DNA of 13,328 bases from Methanosarcinales archaeon (GTDB lineage Archaea > Nanobdellota > Nanobdellia > Woesearchaeales > CG1-02-33-12). Below the pieces are notes generated by a model that did no database searches, was not told where the DNA came from, and worked only from the letters and a program-made list of their open reading frames with translations. The stretch covers positions 1 to 13,328 of the forward strand of contig JAFCBX010000019.1 in the NCBI GenBank assembly GCA_017610505.1, written 5' to 3'. Positions 1 through 11,744 of this stretch are shown here, one piece after another; the first letter of the stretch is position 1, and every line of letters starts with the position of its first letter. The position numbers and the translations under genes were made by a program.

Positions 1-1
1 T

Positions 2-178
2 AAAATAAAAAAAGAGCTCCATAATTTCATAGAAACCAGGGATTTATTTACGTTCTCTCATCACAGCCTGATTAAAAACAGCCCAATACAATTGTTCCAC
101 AAGGCAATAGAAGGTCTTGGAACAAAAATCTCTGAACTAAAATTCAATGAGCTTGAAAACTTCAAAAAGAGGTTATGA
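2..178 (+). CDS. 3' end of an unidentified upstream gene (5'-truncated by the window edge)
   Basis: Frame 2 is open from the window edge to TGA at 176-178 (...HKAIEGLGTKISELKFNELENFKKRL*). Its stop overlaps the ATG of the next gene (ATGA at 175-178), a typical coupled operon junction. No family recognised. Confidence 0.4.
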   Translation, partial: KIKKELHNFIETRDLFTFSHHSLIKNSPIQLFHKAIEGLGTKISELKFNELENFKKRL

Positions 179-1878
179 TGAAAAAGCAAAAAAAAGGGGC
201 AAACAGGAAAAAATATTCCCCAACAAAGCTAATTAAAGGACTTGAGACTATTGAAATTAATAAGGAATTAATTGAGAATTCCTGGGACATTATAGTTGTT
301 TCAAATTTAAAAGCCAGAATTCTATATGTAAATAAAGCAGTTAAAAGGTATGGGTTTAGCAAGGAAGAGTTAATAGGAAAATTTTTGTATAAACTTATTC
401 CAAAAAAGCAAATACCTTTTCTGGCAAGTGAAATGATAAAGGTGCTGAAAGGAAGAATAAGCAAGGGGAATATGGAAGTCCTTACAAAAAAAGGCATTAT
501 CACCTGCGAATTTGTAAGCACTCCAATTAAGAAAAACGGCAAGGTAATTGCACTTCAGACCATTCTCAGGGGCATCACAGAGCGCAAGAAAGCAGATGAA
601 ATAATAAAAAAAGAGAAAAAATTTAATGAAACTCTTGTTCAGGTATCTCCTGCTTTTTTTGTTGCTATCAACGCTGAGGGCAAGACCATAATGATGAACA
701 AGGCAATGCTCAGCGCTCTTGGATACACACTAAAAGAAGTTGAGGGCAAAGACTATCTAAAGACTTTCGTTCCAAAGAGAGACCATAAGATGCTGTCCAA
801 AGTATTTGAAAAGCTGACAAAATTACATGGGGCGTCCTTGAATGAAAACCATATTTTGACCAAAGATGGTAAAGAACTGCTTGTTGAGTGGCATGGAAGG
901 CCAATCTTTAATGAAAATGGCAAATTTGACTATTTCTTTGGGGTTGGCATTGACATCACAGAGCGAAAAAAGGCAGAAGAAGAAACCCAAAGCCAAGCTA
1001 AATTCCTTTCTGAAAATCCTAACCCTATAATGCGTATTTCCCAAGATGGAATTTTATTATATGCAAATGGAGCTGCTTTGGCTCTTGGAGGAAAATTAAA
1101 AATAGGAAAACCAATAGAAGAAAAATGGAGAAAAATATCCAAAAAAACCTATGAAGATAATCAGATTACAGAGCAAGAAGTGCCAGTTGGAGATATATTA
1201 TATTTATTTACGATAATTCCTATTAAAGGTGCTAGCTATATGAATGTGTATGGAAGGGATATCACAAAGCAAAAGAAGGCAGAGGAAAATCTGAAGGAAA
1301 GCGAAGACAATTTCAAAAACCTGTTTGAAAACATGAGCAGCGGAGTTGCAGTTTATAAGGCAGCGAATAATGGCAAAGACTTCATATTCACAAATTTCAA
1401 CAAGGCTGGCGAAAAAATTGATAATATCAAGCTGGAAGATGTCATTGGAAAAAGTGTTCTTAAAGTATTTCCCGAAGTTAAAAAATTTGGACTATTTGAA
1501 ACCTTTCAGAGAGTATGGAAGACCGGCAAGCCTGAGCATCATCCAATCTCAATCTATAAGGACAAAAGATTGACTGGCTGGAGGGAAAACTATGTTTACA
1601 AGCTGCCCTCAGGCAGAATAGTTGCAATATATAATGATATCACAAAGCAGAAAAAGGCAAAGGAAGCATTGAAGGAAAGTGAAGATAAATTCAGAACAAT
1701 AAGTTCATCTGCCAGGGATGCAATTATTATGATTGACAATGAGGGGAAAGTTAATTATTGGAACTATGCAGCAGAAAAACTATTTGGGTATAAATCTAAA
1801 GAAATCTTGGGAAAAAACTTGCATAAGGTCATTACACCACAAAGGTATATCAAAGCATACATATGCAAGAGGATTTAA
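175..1878 (+). CDS. Multi-PAS sensor protein, N-terminal fragment (PAS 1-4 plus first half of PAS 5) of a frameshifted gene
   Basis: ATG at 175 (or 178) lies just downstream of AGAGGT. The sequence shows repeated PAS/S-box modules, each ending in a [DG]IT[EK][RQ]KKA[ED]E linker (GITERKKADE, DITERKKAEE, DITKQKKAEE, DITKQKKAKE). The third module carries the SENPNPI..ISQDG...YAN signature. The ORF stops at 1876-1878 in the middle of PAS 5 (...LHKVITPQRYIKA). Confidence 0.85.
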   Translation: MMKKQKKGANRKKYSPTKLIKGLETIEINKELIENSWDIIVVSNLKARILYVNKAVKRYGFSKEELIGKFLYKLIPKKQIPFLASEMIKVLKGRISKGNMEVLTKKGIITCEFVSTPIKKNGKVIALQTILRGITERKKADEIIKKEKKFNETLVQVSPAFFVAINAEGKTIMMNKAMLSALGYTLKEVEGKDYLKTFVPKRDHKMLSKVFEKLTKLHGASLNENHILTKDGKELLVEWHGRPIFNENGKFDYFFGVGIDITERKKAEEETQSQAKFLSENPNPIMRISQDGILLYANGAALALGGKLKIGKPIEEKWRKISKKTYEDNQITEQEVPVGDILYLFTIIPIKGASYMNVYGRDITKQKKAEENLKESEDNFKNLFENMSSGVAVYKAANNGKDFIFTNFNKAGEKIDNIKLEDVIGKSVLKVFPEVKKFGLFETFQRVWKTGKPEHHPISIYKDKRLTGWRENYVYKLPSGRIVAIYNDITKQKKAKEALKESEDKFRTISSSARDAIIMIDNEGKVNYWNYAAEKLFGYKSKEILGKNLHKVITPQRYIKAYICKRI

Positions 1879-2935
1879 AAAATTCCAAGTTACAGGAAAT
1901 GGTGCTGCAGTAGGGAAAACACTTGAATTAAATGCCCTGAAAAAAGATGGAACAGAATTTCCTGTTGAATTATCCATGTCCTCAGTTAAGATAAAAGGAA
2001 AATGGAATGCAATAGGAATGATAAGGGATACCACCGAAAGGAAAAAGGCAGAAAATATATTACAGGAAAAAGAGGGATTGCTTAGAGCTACACTTGAATC
2101 AACTGATGATGGCATTCTTGTGGTAGATGAACAATGGCATGTTACCCACACAAACACTAGATTTACAAAGATGTGGAAAATACCAAAGAAAATCATCCAA
2201 ACAGGTGATGATAGGAAGTTGCTTGACTATGTTCTTAACCAGTTGGAAGACCCGCAAGCATTTCTTTCAAGGGTTAAACAATTGTACAAGACACCAAAGG
2301 AAAGCCTTGATATAATCACTTTCAAGGATGACAGGGTTTTTGAGCGCTTTTCATGTCCTTTGATTCAAAAGGGAAAAGTCACTGGGAGGGTTTGGAATTT
2401 TAGAGATGTCACAGAGCGCAAAAAGGCAGAAAACGCAATACATGAAAGTGAAGAAAGATACAGGGCAACATTTGAAAGCACTGGAACAGCAATGATGATT
2501 ATTGAGGAAGACACTACAATTTCTCTAGCCAACCATCAGCTTGAGCTATTGGCTGGCTATTCAAAACAGGAAATTGAAGGCAAAATAAGCTGGACAAAAT
2601 TTGTCCACAAGAAAGACCTTGAAAAGATGAAAAAGTATCACAAGGAAAGAAGAAAACAAGAAGGAAATGCCCCTAAACAGTATGAATTCCGCTTTATTGA
2701 TAAAAATAAAAATATAAAAAATATCTTCCTCACAGTAAATGTTATTCCAGGAACAAAAAAAAGTATAGCATCATTAATGGATATTACCGAGCGCAAACAA
2801 ATAGAGCAAGAAATTAAAAAAAGAAACGAAGAACTTGAAAAGTTCAACAAGTTTGTGGTTGGCAGAGAGCTTAAGATGGTTGAGTTAAAGAGGAGAATAA
2901 AAAAGCTTGAGGCAAACTTAGGAAAAAAGAGGTAA
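1733..2935 (+). CDS. Multi-PAS sensor protein, C-terminal fragment (second half of PAS 5, PAS 6-7, conserved C-terminal helix) of the same frameshifted gene
   Basis: Frame 2 continues the interrupted PAS fold from about 1856 (HTYARGFKKFQVTGNGAAVGKTLELNALKKDGTEFPVELSMS...RDTTERKKAE). Two more PAS modules follow (RDVTERKKAEN, DITERKQIEQ). It ends with EELEKFNKFVVGRELKMVELKRRIKKLEANLGKKR*. The track start at 1733 is a TTG inside the overlap and is probably not a real start. No kinase, GGDEF, HTH or other output domain is present. Confidence 0.85.
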   Translation: MTMRGKLIIGTMQQKNYLGINLKKSWEKTCIRSLHHKGISKHTYARGFKKFQVTGNGAAVGKTLELNALKKDGTEFPVELSMSSVKIKGKWNAIGMIRDTTERKKAENILQEKEGLLRATLESTDDGILVVDEQWHVTHTNTRFTKMWKIPKKIIQTGDDRKLLDYVLNQLEDPQAFLSRVKQLYKTPKESLDIITFKDDRVFERFSCPLIQKGKVTGRVWNFRDVTERKKAENAIHESEERYRATFESTGTAMMIIEEDTTISLANHQLELLAGYSKQEIEGKISWTKFVHKKDLEKMKKYHKERRKQEGNAPKQYEFRFIDKNKNIKNIFLTVNVIPGTKKSIASLMDITERKQIEQEIKKRNEELEKFNKFVVGRELKMVELKRRIKKLEANLGKKR

Positions 2936-2938
2936 AAA

Positions 2939-3796
2939 ATGAATGATCTTTTGATATCATTAGGGCAGACAATGTTTAATCTACTTGTTTTTGTTTCATT
3001 TTCTGTGACAATCATATATTTGCTTACTAAAAATAAAAGATTTGCAGATTTTCTTGTATCAGAAAAACCAAAAATTAAATACCAAATTATAGCTGTGATA
3101 CTCTTTGGGATAATTATAATTTTGGCATCAAAATACGCAATTATTGTTATGGGAGCGCGCATTAACATCAGGACTTGTATAGCAATATTCTCCGGAATTC
3201 TTGCAGGTCCAGCAGCGGGCATTGCAGTTGGATTAATAGGGGGGATTTACAGGATGGCTTTGGGTGGATGGAGTGCACTCCCTTGCGGTTTGGCTACAAT
3301 AGGTGCAGGTATGATAGGGGCTTATCTTTATAAGTATAAAAACTATAAGATAAAAAATATAACCCTTAAGCAAATAGGGATAATAACCCTAATAGTTGGG
3401 GTATGGGAATTTATTCATATAGAGGTTCTTGTTCCTCTTTTAGGGGAAAAGCCCATACTTGAGGCATTATCAATTGCAAATCCTCACCTTATCCTGCCAA
3501 TGGCATTGCTGAATATGCTTGGCATAGTAACATTCCTCTTGGTATGTAAAGATACTAAAGAATTAAGAGAGAGTATAAAGATAAAAGAAGATGCCATAAA
3601 AACTAATGTTGAAGCCAGGCAATTGTTGGAAGAACATGTAAAGGAAAGGACTATTGAACTAGAAAAATCAAAGGCTAAACTGCAGTCAAAAGTAGAGGAA
3701 CTGAAAAAATTCAATAATCTTACAGTCGGAAGAGAGATGAGAATGGTTGAATTGAAGAAAAAAGTAAAAGAGTTGGAAGAAAAAATTAAGAAGTAA
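2939..3796 (+). CDS. Membrane sensor with a LytS/YhcK-type 5TM receptor domain (5TMR-LYT-like) and a C-terminal coiled coil; no output domain
   Basis: ATG at 2939 is preceded by AAAAGAGGTAAAAA, 3 nt after the upstream stop. About 5-6 hydrophobic helices are present, with the glycine-rich 5TMR-LYT signature GARINIRTCIAIFSGILAGPAAGIAVGLIGGIYRMALGGW. A cytoplasmic tail of about 85 aa ends in VEELKKFNNLTVGREMRMVELKKKVKELEEKIKK*. Confidence 0.8.
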   Translation: MNDLLISLGQTMFNLLVFVSFSVTIIYLLTKNKRFADFLVSEKPKIKYQIIAVILFGIIIILASKYAIIVMGARINIRTCIAIFSGILAGPAAGIAVGLIGGIYRMALGGWSALPCGLATIGAGMIGAYLYKYKNYKIKNITLKQIGIITLIVGVWEFIHIEVLVPLLGEKPILEALSIANPHLILPMALLNMLGIVTFLLVCKDTKELRESIKIKEDAIKTNVEARQLLEEHVKERTIELEKSKAKLQSKVEELKKFNNLTVGREMRMVELKKKVKELEEKIKK

Positions 3797-3836
3797 ACAA
3801 AGAGTGCAATAATCAATATCAAAAAGAGGTAAAAAG

Positions 3837-5117
3837 ATGAAATTTTTGAATGTTCCAGTGGGACACAAAAAAAGTGAAACTTTTTTTCGCGTTAATGAGA
3901 AAAGCTTGGAAAATTTTAATTTATTAAAAAAAAGTTCTGTATTCTTAATATTATTAGTGATAATATTTTCCGCATTTATTTCAGGGTGCTCAAATCTTCA
4001 ATCAAAGCAGGAAACAATAAAAATAGTTGCCAGTTTTCCTATGAGGGAAATTGATGTTGGGCAAGATATTGTTAATGGAATTAAATTAGCCCTTGAGGAA
4101 GCTGATTATACGGCAGAAAACTATAAGATTAAGTTAGTAGTAGAGGATGGCGGCGATGAAACAGGCACTTGGCAGGCATCTATAGAAAGAGAAATAGCAA
4201 AAAGAGCTGTAGAAGATCCTGACGTAATGGTTTATTTAGGAACGTATAATAGCGGTGCGGCAAAAGTTAGCATCCCCATTACAAATCAATGGGGGCTTGT
4301 TCAGATAAGCCCGGGGAATACATGGCCAGGATTAACAAAGCCAGGTTTCTTTCCTGGAGAGCCAGGTTTATTTTACCCAACAGGAGTGCGGAATTATTTT
4401 AGGGTTTGCCCAAATGATGCAGTGCAGGGTCCAGCTGGGGCTGTCTGGGCCAAAGAAATGAAGTTACAAAATATTTACATATTTGATGACGGAGAAGCAT
4501 ATGGCAAAGGAATTGCCAATATTTTTGAAGAAAAAGCAACTGAACTGGGTTTGAACATATTAGGGCACAAAACTCTTGACAAAAAGTCAGAAGATTTTAC
4601 AGGAGAGTTAAGCAAAATCAAAGATTTAGATTTAGACCTTATTTATTTTGGGGGTATAACACCCAATGGAGCAGTTCCATTGGTTAAAGGCATTAAAGAG
4701 TTAGGAATAACCGCTGAATTCATGGGACCTGATGGCATCATGGAGCAGGCTTTTATAGGCCAGGCAGGAGATGCTGCAGAAGGGACATATGTGGCTGTTG
4801 TTGGAATGCCTACAAAAGGGCTTAAAGGGAAAGGAAAGGAATTTTATGAAAATTACCTGAAGCAATACAGTAAAGAGCCAGGGGCATTCTCAGGTTTTGG
4901 TTATGAAGCAACTAAAGTGGCCTTATTAGCAATTGAAAGGGCTGGTGTAAAAAATAGAGCAAAAATTTTAGAAGAAGTATCAAAAATAAAAAACTATGAC
5001 GGGCTTTTTGGGACTTGGAGTTTTGATAAATATGGTGATACTACTTTAACTATTGTGAGCGGAAATATAGTAAAAAACAAGAGTTTTGTTTTTGAAAAAT
5101 TATTATCCTCAAAATAA
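3837..5117 (+). CDS. Extracellular solute-binding lipoprotein, LivK/branched-chain-amino-acid-binding type (Peripla_BP_6-like)
   Basis: ATG at 3837 has AAGAGGT 7 nt upstream. The signal peptide carries a lipobox-like FISGC|SN. Type-I periplasmic binding-protein motifs run throughout (IKIVASFP...GQDIVNGIKLALEE, YLGTYNSGAAKVSIPITNQWGLVQISPGNT, YFRVCPNDAVQGPAGA, IYIFDDGEAYGKGIA, DLIYFGG, GYEATKVALLAIERAG). Confidence 0.85.
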   Translation: MKFLNVPVGHKKSETFFRVNEKSLENFNLLKKSSVFLILLVIIFSAFISGCSNLQSKQETIKIVASFPMREIDVGQDIVNGIKLALEEADYTAENYKIKLVVEDGGDETGTWQASIEREIAKRAVEDPDVMVYLGTYNSGAAKVSIPITNQWGLVQISPGNTWPGLTKPGFFPGEPGLFYPTGVRNYFRVCPNDAVQGPAGAVWAKEMKLQNIYIFDDGEAYGKGIANIFEEKATELGLNILGHKTLDKKSEDFTGELSKIKDLDLDLIYFGGITPNGAVPLVKGIKELGITAEFMGPDGIMEQAFIGQAGDAAEGTYVAVVGMPTKGLKGKGKEFYENYLKQYSKEPGAFSGFGYEATKVALLAIERAGVKNRAKILEEVSKIKNYDGLFGTWSFDKYGDTTLTIVSGNIVKNKSFVFEKLLSSK

Positions 5118-5133
5118 TGAGATTATAAGCAGA

Positions 5134-7047
5134 ATGGAAAAGAGTATTAAGGCAATATTCAGTAGGATTGGATTAAAATTAATAATCCCTTATTTAATAA
5201 TCTCTTTTTTTACTTTAATATTAATTGCAGGATTAATTTACTATAATTATAATGTACAAATTGATTCTATCCAAAAAATTCAGGAAGAAATTTCATTAAA
5301 ATCTAGTTCTGAAATTAATTATTATATTAAAAATATTATTGATGAATTGGATTTATTTAGCAAGGATATTGGTAAAACTAACCGCTTTGAAAAAAATTTA
5401 AACATAAAAACCTTAAAAAATTTAATTGATTATGACCCAAGTATTTATTCACTTTCAATTATTAATATAGAAGGAAATGAAATAACTAAAATTGTTAGAT
5501 ATAACCCGAAGGCATCTTTAGAGTTAAGGGATGTTTCTTCTCAGGAGAAATTTAAGAAAGCACTTGAAGAAGGAATTTATTTGAGTGATATTTATATTTC
5601 TGAATATAAAGTTCCTTTTATTTCAATTAGTTTGCCAATATTAGATGAAAATAACACAATAATTGGGGTTCTTACTTCTGAAGCTGATTTAAGCCCTATG
5701 TGGGGAACTATATCTAAAATAAGGGTTAAAAAAACAGGGTATGTTTATGTTGTAGATCAAAATGCAAACCTTATAGCATATAAAGATGTAAGTTTAGTTA
5801 AGAAAAAGTTAAATCTAGAGCATATTCAAGGTGTGAAAAACTTTTTGAATAATATCCCTAAATCTGAAACTTACACTTCATTTAATAATGAAAAAGTTAT
5901 TGGTACTTGGAAATCAATTGATATTGCTGGTTGGGGCGTAATTGTAGAATTGCCCTATAAAGAAGTATCTCAAGAACTATTAGTGCTTCTCTTTATTGGT
6001 TTGAGCTCATTTGTTATATTTATTCTATTTATAATTATAATTTTAATAATTATTTTCAAAAAATTATTAGCACCACTTAGCTATTTACAAAAAGGGGTTA
6101 TGGAAGTTAAAGGTGGGAACTTAGATTACAAGATCAATATAACATCCAAGGATGAAATTGGTGAACTTGCCTTTGCTTTCAACCAAATGACTAAGGATTT
6201 AAAAAAGTCAAGGGCAGTTATTGAGAAACACACTGAGAATCTGGAAAGAGAGGTTTCCAAAAGGACAAAAGAACTTAATGAAAATTTCAAAGAGGTTAAT
6301 GATACAAAAACAGCTGCATTAAATATGATGGAAGATCTGCATGAAGCAAATGAAGAGCTTAAAGAGCTTGATAAGGCAAAATCAAATTTCCTGAATATAA
6401 TATCCCATGAATTAAAAACCCCATTAACAGCAGTAATAGCACATCTAGGTGTGTTGGAAGACTTAAAAACAAATCTGACTCCTGATGAAATAAAAAGTGT
6501 GGAAGCAATAAAAAGGAATACAAGCAACCTGAAAATGCTGATAGAGAATATACTGGAAACCTCAAGAATGGAGGCTAAAAAATTTGAGATAAACCTGACA
6601 AAAGTCAGCCTTGAATATCTAATTAAAATGGTCGTGGCAGATTTAATGGTTTTATCAGAGAAAAAAGGGCTAAAGCTAATAACAAAGATAAGCAAATTGC
6701 CAAAAATCTCAATGGATGAGGAAAGGACAAGGGAAATATTAAACAACCTTATTACCAATGCAATTAAATTCACTGAAAATGGCTCAATTACAGTAAAAGC
6801 CAAAAAAATAAGGAATTATATTTCAGTGGATGTAATAGACACAGGCATAGGTATATCAAAGGAAAACTTAAAAAAGATATTTGAGAAATTTTACCAGATC
6901 GACCCTTCTCTAGCAAGGAAATATGGGGGAACAGGTCTTGGGCTGTCAATAACAAAGCAGTTGGTTGAGGCGCAGGGAGGAAAAATAAGTGTAAAAAGTG
7001 TTTTGGGCAAGGGCTCAACATTTTCATTTAAATTACCTATAAAATAG
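5134..7047 (+). CDS. Sensor histidine kinase: TM, Cache-like extracellular domain, TM, HAMP, coiled coil, HisKA, HATPase_c
   Basis: The preferred start is ATG 5134 (MEKSIKAIF...). The track start at 5086 is a TTG that overlaps the upstream gene by 32 nt. Two TM segments flank an extracellular domain of about 250 aa with Cache-like motifs (IIGVLTSEADL, KKTGYVYVVDQNANLIAYKD, GWGVIVELPYKE). Downstream come HAMP (LAPLSYLQKGVMEVKGGNLDYKINITSKDEIGELAFAFNQMTKDL), an S-helix (AALNMMEDL), the H-box FLNIISHELKTPL, the N-box NLITNAIKFT, G1 DTGIGI and G2 GGTGLGLSI. Confidence 0.9.
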   Translation: MEKSIKAIFSRIGLKLIIPYLIISFFTLILIAGLIYYNYNVQIDSIQKIQEEISLKSSSEINYYIKNIIDELDLFSKDIGKTNRFEKNLNIKTLKNLIDYDPSIYSLSIINIEGNEITKIVRYNPKASLELRDVSSQEKFKKALEEGIYLSDIYISEYKVPFISISLPILDENNTIIGVLTSEADLSPMWGTISKIRVKKTGYVYVVDQNANLIAYKDVSLVKKKLNLEHIQGVKNFLNNIPKSETYTSFNNEKVIGTWKSIDIAGWGVIVELPYKEVSQELLVLLFIGLSSFVIFILFIIIILIIIFKKLLAPLSYLQKGVMEVKGGNLDYKINITSKDEIGELAFAFNQMTKDLKKSRAVIEKHTENLEREVSKRTKELNENFKEVNDTKTAALNMMEDLHEANEELKELDKAKSNFLNIISHELKTPLTAVIAHLGVLEDLKTNLTPDEIKSVEAIKRNTSNLKMLIENILETSRMEAKKFEINLTKVSLEYLIKMVVADLMVLSEKKGLKLITKISKLPKISMDEERTREILNNLITNAIKFTENGSITVKAKKIRNYISVDVIDTGIGISKENLKKIFEKFYQIDPSLARKYGGTGLGLSITKQLVEAQGGKISVKSVLGKGSTFSFKLPIK

Positions 7048-7061
7048 GGGAGGTGAACAAA

Positions 7062-7511
7062 ATGAAACCAATGAAAATTAAAAATTTTCATGGTTCTGAA
7101 AATTCAAAGAATTTTCAAGAACTTTCAAAGAAAGGTTTAGAGAAACCGAAGGTTTTTCAAAAAAAAATACTTTACATAGAGGACAATGAGGATACTGCTG
7201 ATGCAGTAAAAGCAATCCTGACACATGCCGGCTTTGAAGCAGATATATCCCTATCTGGAAAAGGTGGAATAAAAAAAGCAGAGAAAATGTTTGACTTAAT
7301 CCTAATAGACATAATGCTTCCTGACATGTCTGGATGGGATGTCTTTACAAAGCTGAATAAGAAAACAAAGGCAAAATTTGCTTTTCTCAGCGCTATTCCT
7401 GTATCAAATGAAAGGATGAAAGTTCTGAAGAAGGCAGGAATCTCAGACTATATAACAAAGCCATTTGAAAAGGATGACTTAATCAATAGAATAAAGAAAA
7501 TATTAAAATAA
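7062..7511 (+). CDS. Stand-alone CheY-like response regulator (REC only) with a Lys-rich N-terminal extension of about 35 aa
   Basis: GGGGAGGTGA at 7047-7056 lies 5 nt upstream of ATG 7062. The track start at 7053 is a GTG inside that SD sequence. REC motifs are present: ILYIEDNED, the phospho-acceptor context DLILIDIMLPDMSG, and ITKPF. No DNA-binding or enzymatic output domain is present. Confidence 0.88.
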   Translation: MKPMKIKNFHGSENSKNFQELSKKGLEKPKVFQKKILYIEDNEDTADAVKAILTHAGFEADISLSGKGGIKKAEKMFDLILIDIMLPDMSGWDVFTKLNKKTKAKFAFLSAIPVSNERMKVLKKAGISDYITKPFEKDDLINRIKKILK

Positions 7512-7548
7512 AAAGATTTAAAACTATCAATAATCCAGGAATTGCAAA

Positions 7549-8028
7549 ATGACATCATTATTAATAATCACTTCAGTAGAAAAACTGCAAACCAGGGTAA
7601 ACTCTGTGGTAAAATCCTTTAAAAATATCCCTGGAATTTATGTTTCCTTAAACAAAACCCAAAAAAGCACAGAAAATATTCTCAGGAAAAATAAGATAAA
7701 TACAAACAAAATATTTTTCATAGACTGTGTTACATCTGAAAAAACAAAGGAGGATGTCTTGCATATAGCGCCTGACCAGCTTGACTTATTGAGCTCTGCA
7801 ATCAACACTTTTATAAAAGACATTAAAGGAAAAAAATTTCTGGTTGTAGATGCATTGTCAACCTTATTAATTTACAATGATGAAAACAAGGTTGTCAAGT
7901 TTGTCAAGGAAGTTACTGAGTATGCCTCCCAAAATGATGTAAAAGTTACGGCTTTCAGCCCTAAAACAAAGGGGGAGGAATTATTAAACAAAATATTCAA
8001 TTTTTTTGACGAGGTAAAAAAAAGATGA
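7549..8028 (+). CDS. Hypothetical protein; possible degenerate RecA/KaiC-superfamily domain lacking a Walker A P-loop
   Basis: ATG 7549 has AGGA 9 nt upstream. The strand/helix pattern resembles KaiC/RadA-like modules (GIYVSLNKT...IFFIDCVT...LLSSAINTFIKDIKGKKFLVVDALSTLLIYND...VKFVKEVTEYASQNDVKVTAFS), but no GxxxxGK[ST] is present. The CDS call is solid; the fold assignment is by-eye and weak. Confidence 0.6.
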   Translation: MTSLLIITSVEKLQTRVNSVVKSFKNIPGIYVSLNKTQKSTENILRKNKINTNKIFFIDCVTSEKTKEDVLHIAPDQLDLLSSAINTFIKDIKGKKFLVVDALSTLLIYNDENKVVKFVKEVTEYASQNDVKVTAFSPKTKGEELLNKIFNFFDEVKKR

Positions 8029-8564
8029 AAAAGATTCTGCTACTTGCATTCCTTATAGCAGGAATTATTCTTGCGCAAAAAAATGTTGAGGCATCATCAT
8101 TTAACATACAGATAACAATTCCAAATGACTATAAAATTATGCATCCCGGAGAAGAGCTTATGGCAAGCATAAAACTTGTTAATCTTGGAAGCTCTGGCAG
8201 GGAGGATGTGTTTTTGGACTATTGGATTACTGGCCCTGAGCAGAATGTTATACTCCAGAGAAAAGAAACTGTTGCTGTTGAAACACAGGCAAACTTTATC
8301 AGGTTCTTTGATATTCCGGAAGATGCTGGACTTGGCAAATATTGCCTTCATTTTAAGGTGACTGACTTTAATGGAAAGGAATCTACTGCAGAGCATTCAT
8401 TTGAGGTTGCTCAAACGCATATAGATAGGCAGGTGTCCTACTGGTTTGCAGGAATACTTGCTTTTATACTATTGATTTACATTATTTCCAAGTCAAGGCC
8501 AATGCTTAAAAGGCTGCAGATGCAGGTCAGGGTATCAAGAATGGTTAAAAAGAGACTGAAGTAA
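8025..8564 (+). CDS. Small secreted protein with a predicted Ig/CARDB-like beta-sandwich and a C-terminal TM anchor
   Basis: ATG 8025 overlaps the upstream TGA (ATGA), with GAGGT 9 nt upstream. It has an N-terminal signal peptide (MKKILLLAFLIAGIILAQKNVEA). The alternating beta-strand pattern is typical of CARDB-like domains (HPGEELMASIKLVNLGSSGREDVFLDYWITGP...GKYCLHFKVTD). A C-terminal hydrophobic helix (YWFAGILAFILLIYII) is followed by a basic tail. Confidence 0.7.
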   Translation: MKKILLLAFLIAGIILAQKNVEASSFNIQITIPNDYKIMHPGEELMASIKLVNLGSSGREDVFLDYWITGPEQNVILQRKETVAVETQANFIRFFDIPEDAGLGKYCLHFKVTDFNGKESTAEHSFEVAQTHIDRQVSYWFAGILAFILLIYIISKSRPMLKRLQMQVRVSRMVKKRLK

Positions 8565-8610
8565 AAGCTAATTATCTTATGCTTAATTCTATTTAGTTTT
8601 ATTATAAATA

Positions 8611-8807
8611 TACGGCTGCCGGGACTTTCATAGCACTTGCAAACTCTTTTGTGAGTGTTAGCGAGCACGGCGGGCTTGCCGTCAGGCAATGCCCTCCTTT
8701 GCGTATCAAATGAGCGTAACCATTTGCGTGCCAGCTTAGCAAGAAGCTGTTTTGAACCCGGGCAATGACCTTGGGAGGGTCATGTCATACCACTAGACCA
8801 CAGCCGT
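8611..8807 (-). tRNA. tRNA-Gly(CCC) interrupted by a 126-nt intron in the T-loop (between nt 59 and 60)
   Basis: The minus strand reads ACGGCUG UG GUCU AGUGGUA UGAC A UGACC CUCCCAA GGUCA UUGC CCGGG UUCAAA[126-nt intron]U CCCGG CAGCCGU A. After splicing this gives a 71-nt cloverleaf with perfect 7-bp acceptor, 5-bp anticodon and 5-bp T stems. Conserved positions are present: U8, A14, G18G19, A21, U33, purine-37, U54-U55-C56, A58 and G53:C61. The anticodon is CCC. C2:G71, G3:C70 and A73 fit archaeal Gly identity. CCA is not encoded. Exon 1 is 8751-8807 and exon 2 is 8611-8624. Confidence 0.85.
8625..8750 (-). other. BHB-type tRNA intron (126 nt), GC-rich and internally structured
   Basis: T-loop nt 54-57 (UUCA) pair with the intron 3' end (UGAA) to form the 4-bp central helix. 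It is flanked by a 3-nt bulge on the 3' strand (AG|U60) next to the T-stem and by a bulge on the 5' strand (A58 A59|A). An inner helix follows (AGC/GCU, then CUUGC/GCAAG) after one C.A mismatch. Cutting after the second bulge nucleotide on each strand restores the canonical T-loop UUCAAAU. The intron has 64/126 G+C by my count, well above its AT-rich surroundings. Confidence 0.75.
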
Positions 8808-8830
8808 GTAATAACCAAGAAAGTAAGAGG

Positions 8831-8838
8831 ATATAAAA
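8831..8838 (-). promoter_or_regulatory. TATA-box-like element for the tRNA gene
   Basis: The minus strand reads TTTTATAT, with 23 nt between it and tRNA position +1 (8807). This matches archaeal TATA-to-TSS spacing. Confidence 0.55.
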
Positions 8839-9002
8839 GATTTTTGGAAAAATCAGGATTGTTTTAATAGTTTTTTATTATCATTCTTTATTTATTCAAG
8901 GAATTCTTACTGAAAAAAAGTAAAGTTTTTATTGTAATTGTGATTCACTAATAGGAATTAATCATTATAAAACAAATAATGTGATTATTGGGGGTAAGAA
9001 AA

Positions 9003-9170
9003 ATGCTCGGAATAGTCAAGAAAGGGAAAATCTATAGTGAAGGAGAATTAGAAAAACTCGGTCTGGTAAATACCCATAAAAAATTCTCTGATCTCTTGAT
9101 TTACAAGAAAGATGATAAGGTGTATCTTTTTAAACATATTGATAAGAACAAACTTAAATTATACATATAA
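9003..9170 (+). CDS. Small hypothetical protein (55 aa)
   Basis: ATG 9003 is preceded by GGGGT about 8 nt upstream and by CATTATAAAA about 30-39 nt upstream. The track start at 8988 is a TTG. The product is MLGIVKKGKIYSEGELEKLGLVNTHKKFSDLLIYKKDDKVYLFKHIDKNKLKLYI. No family recognised; it could be non-coding. Confidence 0.35.
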   Translation: MLGIVKKGKIYSEGELEKLGLVNTHKKFSDLLIYKKDDKVYLFKHIDKNKLKLYI

Positions 9171-9315
9171 CTAAAAACCAATACGTGTTTTTCCTAACAG
9201 CTTCTTAGTTAGAGTAAAACTTTGCTAAACTGTAGCTTATTAAAAATAGAGCTAGCTATTACAACTTTCCTTCTTTCCTAAAAAAAACAAGTCTAACTAT
9301 CTGACAATAGTAACA

Positions 9316-9323
9316 TTTAAATA
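9316..9323 (+). promoter_or_regulatory. TATA-box-like element upstream of the 499-aa ORF (leaderless-type spacing)
   Basis: TTTAAATA at 9316-9323 ends 23 nt before ATG 9347, and no SD-like sequence lies between them. This is consistent with a leaderless archaeal transcript. Confidence 0.45.
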
Positions 9324-9346
9324 AAAGAATAGCCATTTAAACACTA

Positions 9347-10846
9347 ATGGAGAACAAATCTGATTTAAGAATCAATTATCCTCAATATACTGGAAGAAGA
9401 TATGTTTTTGCAATAAAGGACAATCCACAAAACAAGCCCTTAATAGCTGCAGAGGCTGCTTTTATTGCAGATGTCATGATAACAAAACCAAGTATTCTCA
9501 AAAAACAATTTCAGGCTTCTTTAGAATATCAGGAACAAAAAAAGAGTTACATCCCACTCATAGATTTAAGTAGAAAGTATGGTGTTTACACAGGAGAGAA
9601 AAAAGCAGATGAGAGTCTGCAGTTAAGATACAAAAGGTTAACTGACTTAAGTTTGGATGAACTGGTTTTTGCAATTCTGGAAAAAATCCACACAAAAACA
9701 GGGGCAAAGAACCTTTACTATAAATCAGGAGAAGAATACTTTAATATAGAAGAAAGCGGGCAGGGAGGAGGCATACCCTATGCAGGACCAATTGTTTTGA
9801 CAGCTCCTGTAAGGGCAAAGGCAGATGGCAGGAGAAAAGGCAAGGGCATCAGGAAAATTGAAATAGAGGGCTATTTTGAAACAAGCAAAATTCCATTCAA
9901 CAGTATTCATTCAGAGTCAGAGGACTTTTTCTATACCCTTACAAAGCAGGGTTACACAGGAGGGCATTTACTCACAACAGAAGTACAGGCCCTGCTGCTT
10001 TATGCAAAAAGAAATCCTAGTAAAATCAAAAACCTAGAGAACCTAATGAAATCAGATTCAAATCTAAAAATATTCACACCAATCCATACTAGAGAATCAC
10101 AGCTTAAAACATTGGAAAAATATACAATAAAAGAAGATGATTTTATGAAGAAGGGTGAACAACCAGATCTGACAATGCTCAGGGATGATATACTCTTTGA
10201 CTGGCTGTTTAATGGAACAAACTTCTTTGAGATAGGAAAGAAAATAACTAAGATACCAACAATTGTTGATATAAAACTAGCTGATAAGGTATATAATGAA
10301 ACTGCTGATCTTGAGGTAGTTGTAAATAACTACATATTTGATAAAAGCAATACCTTTATACCAAAACCAGTAAGGGCTTTTTTTGAATTAATGCATAAAA
10401 GACTGATTTGGGATGGATTCAAGCGAGAGGGTTACTGTCTTGAGAAAAGGGATTCTGAAAATGAGACAATAGCAATGGTTTATGAAAAGGGGGATAAGTC
10501 CATAAGGCTCTTATTCAACCAAAATTTTCCACCTTTGGTTCTAAAGCGTGTAAAAAACCCACGGTTTGAAGTAACACCATTCAGAGTCGAAGAAAAAAAC
10601 AACAAAATACATCCTTTCTCTGAACTTTTTATGCAAAAAGATGTATTTGATGACAAGACAAGGGCAAGGACAGATTACCAAGTTGTTATCCCAACAGAGT
10701 TTAAAATTCCAAGAGAGCTTTGGCATGATTATAGGATAATGATTAACAAATATTTTAAAGGCAAAGGCAATCGTCTTGAAAAGCAGTTAAGAATAATGAA
10801 TATCCCTAACAGAGATAGAATTCTGGATTTAATAAAAATGTCTTGA
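9347..10846 (+). CDS. Hypothetical protein, 499 aa, no recognisable domain (ORFan by eye)
   Basis: A long uninterrupted ORF with non-repetitive, mixed-charge composition unlike the antisense shadow ORFs. No P-loop, HNH, DEDD, zinc-finger or HTH signature could be identified. A basic patch is present (RAKADGRRKGKGIRK). Confidence 0.75.
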   Translation: MENKSDLRINYPQYTGRRYVFAIKDNPQNKPLIAAEAAFIADVMITKPSILKKQFQASLEYQEQKKSYIPLIDLSRKYGVYTGEKKADESLQLRYKRLTDLSLDELVFAILEKIHTKTGAKNLYYKSGEEYFNIEESGQGGGIPYAGPIVLTAPVRAKADGRRKGKGIRKIEIEGYFETSKIPFNSIHSESEDFFYTLTKQGYTGGHLLTTEVQALLLYAKRNPSKIKNLENLMKSDSNLKIFTPIHTRESQLKTLEKYTIKEDDFMKKGEQPDLTMLRDDILFDWLFNGTNFFEIGKKITKIPTIVDIKLADKVYNETADLEVVVNNYIFDKSNTFIPKPVRAFFELMHKRLIWDGFKREGYCLEKRDSENETIAMVYEKGDKSIRLLFNQNFPPLVLKRVKNPRFEVTPFRVEEKNNKIHPFSELFMQKDVFDDKTRARTDYQVVIPTEFKIPRELWHDYRIMINKYFKGKGNRLEKQLRIMNIPNRDRILDLIKMS

Positions 10847-10904: not shown

Positions 10905-11744
10905 ATGTCAAAAAAATACTCAAAAGAAAATATAGAAGGAATTCTAAAAAGCCTTAAAGGTGGGGTTATTATGGATGTAACCGAGTTAGGACAAGCACAA
11001 ATAGCCCAGGAGGCAGGGGCTGTTGCAGTAATGTCATTATACATGGTTCCATCTGATATTAGAAAAGAAAAGGGACATTATGGAGAAGCAAGAATGCTTG
11101 AAGCTCTTGGAATTGATTTTATAGATGAAAGTGAAGTACTAACTCCAGCAGATAAAAAATACCATATAAACAAGAGAGAATTTAAAGCACCATTTGTCTG
11201 CGGTGCACGTGACCTGGGAGAGGCATTGAGGAGAATTTATGAAGGGGCTATGATGATAAGAACAAAGGGAGAGGCAGGAACAGGTGATATAAATCAGGCA
11301 ATAGAACATATGAGACAAATCAGGAAAGAGATAGCAGAGCTTGTTGGCTTATGGGAATATAACAAGTTTCTGATTAAAGAAGGCAAAAAAGGTATGGAAG
11401 ATGAGCTAAGAAGAAAGGCCCTAAAAGAATATGAGGTCCCATATGAGCTTGTATATGAAGTTGCAAAATCAGGAAAACTTCCAGTATTAAACTTTGCAGC
11501 AGGAGGAATAGCAACTCCTGCAGATGCAACCTATATGATGAAGCTAGGAGCAGATGGTGTCTTTGTTGGAAGCGGGATATTTAAATCAGAAGATCCAAAA
11601 AAAAGGGCAAAGGCAATAGTTGAGGCTGTCAGATATTGGAATGACCCTGCTAAGCTGTTAAAGGTTTCCAGAGGTTTAAAGGAGGCAATGAAAGGCACTG
11701 CAATAGACTCTTTAGAAGAAAAAGATAAAATGCAGCATAGATAA
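10905..11744 (+). CDS. pdxS: Pyridoxal 5'-phosphate synthase subunit PdxS homolog with an internal in-frame gap (possibly inactive)
   Basis: GGGGTGAG lies 5 nt upstream of ATG 10905. Strong PdxS motifs are present: [82 protein letters not shown] and AMKG. An archaeal-type insertion follows the RQIRKEI region. The GVARM...IPVMAK.RIG segment is missing (see findings). Confidence 0.85.

Follow-up and report, generated by a model that had tools for sequence, protein, structure and literature searches.

The 13,328-nt contig JAFCBX010000019.1 (below, the window: the whole stretch of DNA that was analyzed) carries on its minus strand a locus that is very probably (roughly 0.88) a functional, intron-containing gene for tRNA-Gly(CCC), in an uncultured archaeon most likely of the Woesearchaeota type within DPANN. 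A 126-nt insert divides the gene within its T-loop, and splicing at a bulge-helix-bulge motif is predicted to remove it. The parts of the gene, in coordinates of the window, are as follows.

8751..8807, minus strand: exon 1 of tRNA-Gly(CCC), 57 nt, tRNA positions 1-59, from the sequence and from ARAGORN on the spliced form; it comprises the acceptor 5' strand ACGGCUG, the D arm, the anticodon arm with CCC, the T-stem 5' strand CCGGG, and UUCAAA of the T-loop
8625..8750, minus strand: predicted intron, 126 nt, at tRNA position 59/60; its removal restores the T-loop UUCAAAU
8611..8624, minus strand: exon 2, 14 nt, comprising U60, the T-stem 3' strand CCCGG, the acceptor 3' strand CAGCCGU, and the discriminator A73

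Read on the minus strand, exon 1 is ACGGCUG UG GUCU AGUGGUA UGAC A UGACC CUCCCAA GGUCA UUGC CCGGG UUCAAA and exon 2 is U CCCGG CAGCCGU A; the gene ends at A73, with no CCA encoded. Once 8750-8625 are deleted in silico, ARAGORN calls a 71-nt tRNA-Gly(ccc) with a regular cloverleaf, which is also the minimum-energy fold of the spliced RNA (-27.6 kcal/mol), and the bases for the tertiary pairs U8/A14, G18-G19/U55-C56, G15/C48, U54/A58, and G53/C61 are all in place. Intronless orthologues at two related loci, L011 and L007 (related loci and contigs are given L numbers throughout), score 70.5 and 66.1 bits on the Rfam tRNA model, whose gathering score is 29, and serve here as a proxy for the spliced sequence of the window: they have the same acceptor, D arm, anticodon loop, and T arm, with 7-8 differences in the anticodon stem and variable region only.

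ARAGORN and Rfam both miss the unspliced gene. ARAGORN makes no tRNA call on the raw window, and none on the unspliced 301-nt region with the options -i, -i0,200, or -io, because it models introns in the anticodon loop only. Rfam returns no match at the gathering threshold in the whole window; at E up to 10 on 8500-8900 it gives a sub-threshold, mis-aligned tRNA match of 21.7 bits, which misuses intron bases as the acceptor 3' strand, and otherwise only chance snoRNA and CRISPR matches. An open reading frame (ORF) of 70 amino acids does exist at 8477-8689 on the minus strand, but nothing in Pfam matches it, and gene calling passed it over on the same-species contig L001. An earlier, sequence-only reading of the window had proposed the split tRNA-Gly(CCC), had predicted that excision would regenerate UUCAAAU, had suspected that standard tools might overlook the gene, and had dismissed this ORF as spurious. 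Its coordinates and sequence are exact, in-silico removal of the insert gives the 7-nt T-loop, and for ARAGORN and Rfam the suspicion holds.

The junctions of the predicted intron lie within a motif whose elements are listed next, in coordinates as above.

8753..8756, minus strand: 5' strand of the central 4-bp helix, U54 U55 C56 A57, pairing with UGAA 8630-8627
8627..8630, minus strand: 3' strand of the central 4-bp helix, intron UGAA
8750..8752, minus strand: 5' bulge, A58 A59 and A, the first base of the intron; putative 5' cleavage between 8751 and 8750
8624..8626, minus strand: 3' bulge, A G and U60; putative 3' cleavage between 8625 and 8624
8739..8749, minus strand: 5' strand of the inner helix (h'), with C8749 mismatched with A8631, AGC 8748-8746, and CUUGC 8743-8739
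8631..8640, minus strand: 3' strand of the inner helix, with GCAAG 8640-8636, GCU 8634-8632, and A8631 opposite C8749

Judged by its sequence this is the archaeal bulge-helix-bulge, with two 3-nt bulges around a 4-bp helix and, in each bulge, a predicted splice site that follows the second base. The 5-bp T-stem itself (CCGGG 8761-8757 with CCCGG 8623-8619) serves as the outer helix; the inner helix runs from the C.A mismatch through 3 bp (AGC/GCU) and a small internal loop to 5 bp (CUUGC/GCAAG). The precursor folds better than 200 of 200 dinucleotide shuffles (z = -2.96), and imposing the bulge-helix-bulge on all 197 nt costs 0.4 kcal/mol (-71.4 vs. -71.8 kcal/mol for the free fold). Across 16 precursors tested, the fold with the motif lies 0-3.6 kcal/mol from the free minimum-energy fold, and in four it is that fold.

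Comparative evidence comes from homologous genes. Searching 185,579 species genomes for a D-arm-to-anticodon pattern turned up 8 loci, and a metagenome scan built to exclude intronless genes added 27 more; together they yield 28 distinct tRNA-Gly(CCC) sequences with an insert at 59/60. The inserts are 12, 17, 23, 25, 26, 29, 29, 30, 30, 32, 35, 40, 72, 72, 76, 89, 90, 91, 96, 102, 121, 122, 122, 123, 125, 126, 130, and 143 nt long. The intron of the window had been described as long for one without an ORF: long it is, but with other members of 102-143 nt in the family it is no exception. Four of the species loci have T-loop inserts: L008 (121 nt; assembly labeled Nanoarchaeota), L009 (96 nt) and L013 (72 nt; both labeled Woesearchaeota), and L012 (122 nt; labeled Methanosarcinales). 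L007 and L011 (Woesearchaeota) have intronless tRNA-Gly(CCC) genes with A1:U72 as in the window, and L006 and L010 (Methanosarcinales) have intronless genes with G1:C72. The A1:U72 pair, flagged from the sequence as an oddity, is found in intronless relatives too and is therefore a trait of the lineage, the normal acceptor end of its tRNA-Gly(CCC).

Exon sequences are invariant in a number of relatives. The same-species metagenome contigs L001-L003 have a tRNA and intron identical to those of the window; within the 301-nt region, L001 departs from it at a single base, shortly upstream of the gene. Exon 1 is identical in L008, L009, L012, L023, L024, L033, and L038, and exon 2 in all A1:U72 relatives with CAGCCGU; both exons of L008, L009, and L012 match those of the window fully, and L013 is one base off. 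In a comparison of L008, L009, L012, L024, and L038 with the window, exons agree at 71 of 71 positions. Identity is 53-66% in the introns, which have many indels, and about 50-73% in the 60-nt flanks. This difference at the sequence level indicates that the exons are probably under purifying selection.

Pairing within the splice motif is maintained as well. Over 25 distinct junctions, 97% of the cells of the central helix are paired. The combination of T-loop base 57 with intron base -6 is A-U in 14 sequences, G-C in 10, G.U in two, and something else in two, with no A-C (Fisher p = 1.2e-5): a UUCA T-loop goes with UGAA, and a UUCG T-loop with CGAA. Sliding the partner columns by one lowers overall pairing from 84% to 52-63%. 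If the 3' splice site is set a single base ahead of CCCGG, the 3' strand of the T-stem, the partner of bases 54-57 lies exactly two intron bases upstream of that site in 25 of the 28, leaving a 3-nt bulge next to C61; L028, L030, and L040 pair imperfectly in the central helix. The junction proposed from the sequence, with UUCA/UGAA, AG|U, AA|A, and a relaxed C.A start to the inner helix, proves correct base by base, and the homologues add a compensatory R57:Y pair.

The 5' side is in strict register in L016, L021, L022, L029, L030, and L040. The first inner pair is mismatched in the window, L008, L025, L031, L032, L038, and L039; a single extra base lies opposite the 5' bulge in L012, L015, and L017, which have long-range inner helices of 5-12 bp; L013, L014, L019, L020, and L036 have a 2-nt 5' bulge as an alternative; and L035 has a minimal form resembling a bulge-helix-loop. 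Since the inner helix of the window begins with C.A and most relatives have a relaxed 5' side, the endonuclease of this lineage is expected to tolerate relaxed motifs. Two further observations were made on these loci. L014, L016, L028, and L035 have a second insert of about 11-37 nt in the D-loop after GGUA, making them double-intron tRNA-Gly(CCC) genes; and L021 has, at 2841-2897 on the minus strand, near an intact tRNA and its intron-bearing tRNA-Gly, a sub-threshold tRNA match (26.6 bits; gathering score 29) that may be another disrupted tRNA gene.

Upstream of the gene is one further conserved element.

8832..8850, minus strand: conserved upstream block TTTCCAAAAATCTTTTATA, a purine run like a TFIIB-recognition element (BRE) followed by a TATA-like box, with TTTTATAT at -31 to -24 from tRNA base 1

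The window and ten relatives (L008, L009, L012, L015, L023, L024, L025, L031, L033, and L038) share the block, TTTCCAAAAATCTTTTAWA, at 25-44 nt upstream of tRNA base 1, while the flank around it diverges. Because its position is typical of archaeal TATA boxes, it is likely to function as a BRE/TATA promoter. Transcription driven from it would begin a few bases ahead of tRNA base 1. For the resulting 197-nt precursor, fold prediction suggests the usual T-stem and the usual acceptor, D, and anticodon arms; T-loop bases 54-57 (UUCA) would pair with UGAA near the 3' end of the intron, creating the bulge-helix-bulge, a motif that the sequence shows and covariation supports, with the inner helix closing off the rest of the intron. 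By the established archaeal pathway, the EndA endonuclease would cut at 8751/8750 in one bulge and at 8625/8624 in the other, an RtcB-type ligase would join A59 to U60, restoring the T-loop UUCAAAU, and probably also circularize the intron, and CCA would be added after ligation.

Several points weigh against a functional, spliced gene. The case for splicing, for the precise cut sites, and for expression is an indirect one, and neither an EndA nor an RtcB gene lies in the 13-kb window. The inner helix opens on the C8749.A8631 mismatch, a slight relaxation of the hBHBh' form, and the weak UUCA/UGAA helix does not form spontaneously in the free nearest-neighbor fold of the window. A local hairpin, CAGCUU (8749-8744) with AAGCUG (8737-8732), uses bases of h' and at -70.9 kcal/mol is nearly isoenergetic, although it could itself supply h' in an alternative form of the motif. 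Finally, tRNA-Gly(UCC) could in principle read GGG, so the conservation described above argues for function rather than for essentiality.

The alternative that survives best accepts splicing and adds to it: the intron would also be a functional RNA, either a stable, possibly circular small RNA or a protein-binding element, that aids or regulates maturation of the tRNA or acts in trans. Here it would be centered on an internal hairpin.

8669..8697, minus strand: conserved internal hairpin GG-A-GGGC-A-UUGCC(UGAC)GGCAA-GCCC-G-CC, with an invariant C-A-U-U ... A-A-G core and a bulged A

This hairpin is found in 10 introns, that of the window and nine others. Eight distinct versions, in an equal-length alignment anchored by hand on structure (a MAFFT alignment was poor in the apical stem and was dropped), have 89.6% of cells paired and six pairs changed on both sides, which none of 500 shuffles equals; the C-A-UU ... 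AA-G core is constant while the stems covary. The hairpin persists although host exons differ, in L015 and L032 with A1:U72 and in L017 with G1:C72. There is also general precedent for a functional intron: a box C/D guide RNA is contained in the intron, about 105 nt long, of Haloferax volcanii tRNA-Trp. The same alignment, however, has only its eight hand-anchored rows, and selection for a compact intron that does not misfold would likewise keep the hairpin. It is absent from the 12-40-nt introns and from L013, L021, L025, L031, L036, and L039, and is therefore dispensable for the tRNA. It matches no Rfam family in the window region (E up to 10) or in the introns of seven related loci (E up to 5), and has no C/D or H/ACA boxes. 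In a motif scan of 270 kb of related loci it was found outside tRNA-Gly introns only once, an unrelated-looking, chance-like match in L040, and nothing in the scan points to a mobile module.

The long introns are modular (L023 equals L024 plus 54 nt). A 5' intron element, ACAGCUUCUUGCUAAGCUGG, is common to the window, L008, L012, L025, L031, and L038; L015 has the variant ACAACUGCUUGCUCAGUUGA, whose four differing positions are paired such that the local hairpin and the long-range helix are both kept. A hairpin of the form AAAUGGUUACGC.CAUUU occurs in the window, L009, L023, and L024. Should the bulged-A hairpin and the conserved 5' element CAGCUUCUUGCUAAGCUG together constitute a functional structured module, whether as a stable circle of RNA released by splicing or as an element that binds protein or regulates, it would be an RNA module specific to a Woesearchaeota-type clade, and the T-loop intron would be more than a passive spacer; such a role is possible but improbable, with a chance of about one in ten.

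Some named RNA types were also considered for the locus. A box C/D guide RNA (C, RUGAUGA; D, CUGA) was rejected: by eye the window intron region offers one UGAU and one CUGA, the latter in a hairpin loop that relatives do not conserve. The only Rfam C/D matches at the locus are on the plus, i.e., opposite, strand (E = 4.5 and 8.2), and none overlaps the introns of seven relatives scanned. A kink-turn (k-turn), a split tRNA, a permuted tRNA, and an integrated element were considered and rejected as well.

Much less probable than an added RNA function is that the T-loop insertion broke the tRNA-Gly(CCC) gene, leaving a dead, unspliced pseudogene while another tRNA reads GGG. The silence of the standard finders would fit this, as would the mismatch in the inner helix and the intronless tRNA-Gly(CCC) genes of some other Woesearchaeota-labeled assemblies, L007 and L011. 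A dead gene, however, would hardly be expected to hold its exons invariant while introns and flanks diverge heavily, to uphold its splice motif by a compensatory change, or to conserve a promoter-like block. Moreover, the D-arm-to-anticodon pattern matches just once in each of the intron-bearing species assemblies (L008, L009, L012, and L013), and in these four, which are incomplete, no second intact tRNA-Gly(CCC) of the same type is visible. A self-splicing group I or II intron or an integrated mobile element, spliced if at all without the endonuclease, is very nearly precluded: the modular look of the family, with hairpin-sized insertions, and the group I introns of Woesearchaeota rRNA genes (PMC6125680) lend it a little color, but 126 nt is far below ribozyme size (200 nt or more), orthologues go down to 12 nt, the Intron_gpI and Intron_gpII models remain unmatched even at E = 10, the window shows no ORF in the intron, terminal repeat, or duplicated tRNA 3' end, and the junctions obey the bulge-helix-bulge rule exactly.

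The spliced tRNA gene is the preferred reading, and its neighborhood bears on the identity of the host. An archaeal origin is suggested by the labeled relatives, by A73 without an encoded CCA, and by the archaeal families DUF835, DUF7090, and MEDS. With moderate confidence the host can be called a DPANN archaeon of the Woesearchaeota type (Nanoarchaeota in the Genome Taxonomy Database, GTDB), because five independently made assemblies with the same type of tRNA are labeled Woesearchaeota or Nanoarchaeota and one Methanosarcinales. The genes adjoining the tRNA, for PdxS and a PRC-barrel protein, are 83-91% identical in DNA sequence to those of L008, L009, and L012, and a PRC-barrel gene is also beside the tRNA in L007 and L013. 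Two things speak against the assignment. It rests on the labels of relatives' assemblies, among them one syntenic contig (L012) labeled Methanosarcinales; and a load of sensor kinases such as that described below is unusual for a small DPANN genome. As to the first, L012 (CAYOHL010000011.1, “uncultured Methanosarcinales archaeon”) is syntenic with, and has 83-91% DNA identity to, contigs labeled Woesearchaeota or Nanoarchaeota, and is probably mislabeled or mis-binned.

The sensors are in a plus-strand cluster at 1-8564 that ends 46 nt from the 3' end of the tRNA. It encodes PAS-rich sensors, a membrane protein of the 5TMR-LYT type, a periplasmic binding protein, a histidine kinase with Cache and HAMP domains, a response regulator, and proteins of the DUF835 and DUF7090 families. 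The flank on this side seems to be the same in L025; L008, L009, and L012 do not have the cluster at this site, and have there another gene, beginning MSIAENYKKI and possibly YggS-like. Insertion of the cluster beside the tRNA as an island is possible but unsupported: a search of the window turned up no att-like repeat of the tRNA 3' end, no integrase was seen in it, and Tandem Repeats Finder reported nothing on 8800-9400. Within the cluster, the PAS-domain ORFs 175-1878 and 1733-2935, both on the plus strand, overlap by about 145 nt in different frames; they could be one frameshifted sensor gene, or a start codon may have been placed too far upstream.

Two observations concern the other flank. 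The PdxS gene (10905-11744, plus strand) is missing 30 codons, VARTAPVDKIEDIMNDEEIKIPVMAKARIG, with the deletion point near 11075; L001, L008, L009, and L012 have them. The missing stretch contains the conserved motif VMAKxRIGH with the catalytic lysine, and the allele in the window is probably inactive, or else an assembly or population variant. Nearer the tRNA, L002 lacks 71 nt corresponding to window 9043-9113, inside a small plus-strand ORF at 9003-9170; 71 is not a multiple of three, so that one strain has a broken version of the 55-amino-acid ORF called there on L001 and L003. This ORF matches nothing in Pfam and may be spurious.

What the locus adds is first of all a tRNA gene recovered that both ARAGORN and Rfam miss, in a DPANN-type clade where the one tRNA-Gly(CCC) gene that can be seen has a split T-loop. 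Predicted tRNA sets of DPANN archaea are incomplete, which led Kaneta et al. (2018, PMC5829648) to suspect unidentified disrupted genes, and the present gene is a concrete case. The 28-member orthologous series, with introns of 12-143 nt at a single site, is a natural data set on modular intron growth and on a splice motif held by compensatory change, and it indicates which relaxed motifs the uncharacterized endonucleases of these lineages must accept. The general picture of archaeal tRNA splicing is unchanged, since introns of this type are already known in archaea. No description of this particular family of tRNA-Gly(CCC) introns was found in the literature, in a search that was not exhaustive.

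Among known systems, the H. volcanii tRNA-Trp intron resembles that of the window in being an archaeal tRNA intron of more than 100 nt, structured and without an ORF. It differs in being at 37/38 and in having C/D boxes with known methylation targets, none of which were found in the window intron.

Position 59/60 is among the established non-canonical sites of archaeal introns (PMC4090602). The sequence-only reading had presented T-loop introns as rare and mainly of the Thermoproteales type; this overstates both points, the host being most likely a DPANN archaeon and a 59/60 intron having already been demonstrated in the DPANN archaeon ARMAN-2 (PMC3239211; PMC4090602). Introns of Thermoproteales (PMC4090602) are, like that of the window as predicted here, endonuclease-dependent and at sites other than 37/38, including 59/60. 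They have hBHBh', HBh', or hBH motifs, sometimes with several introns per tRNA, and L014, L016, L028, and L035 likewise have a second insert, in the D-loop. Their hosts are hyperthermophilic crenarchaea with an (alpha-beta)2 enzyme, whereas the host of the window is low in GC and apparently mesophilic; and there is no sign, in the DNA examined here, of the intron transposition between tRNAs known from Thermoproteales.

The closest counterpart is in ARMAN-2 (Candidatus Micrarchaeum acidiphilum), in which pre-tRNA-Cys(GCA) has a 13-nt 59/60 intron that is cleaved in vitro by an epsilon2 endonuclease (PMC3239211), and pre-tRNA-Pro(GGG) has introns at both 53/54 and 59/60 (Fujishima et al., 2011, PMC3239211). 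Insertion point and superphylum are shared, as is a bulge-helix-bulge on the T-arm, relaxed forms included. The tRNA in the window is instead Gly-CCC, and its intron is about 10 times longer (126 vs. 13 nt), with a conserved structured hairpin. The enzymes may differ too: that of ARMAN-2 is of the special epsilon2 type, whereas Kaneta et al. (2018, PMC5829648) report for several DPANN lineages an alpha4 EndA that has an additional L3 loop and goes together with a larger number of disrupted tRNA genes.

With the canonical intron at 37/38, lastly, the motif in the window shares an identical 3-4-3 geometry: a 5-bp stem, a 3-nt bulge with the 3' splice site, four loop bases paired to the intron, and a 3-nt bulge with the 5' splice site after the sixth base of the loop. 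The difference is one of place, the motif being shifted by 22 positions onto the T-arm, where it disrupts the T-loop and the D/T elbow rather than the anticodon loop.

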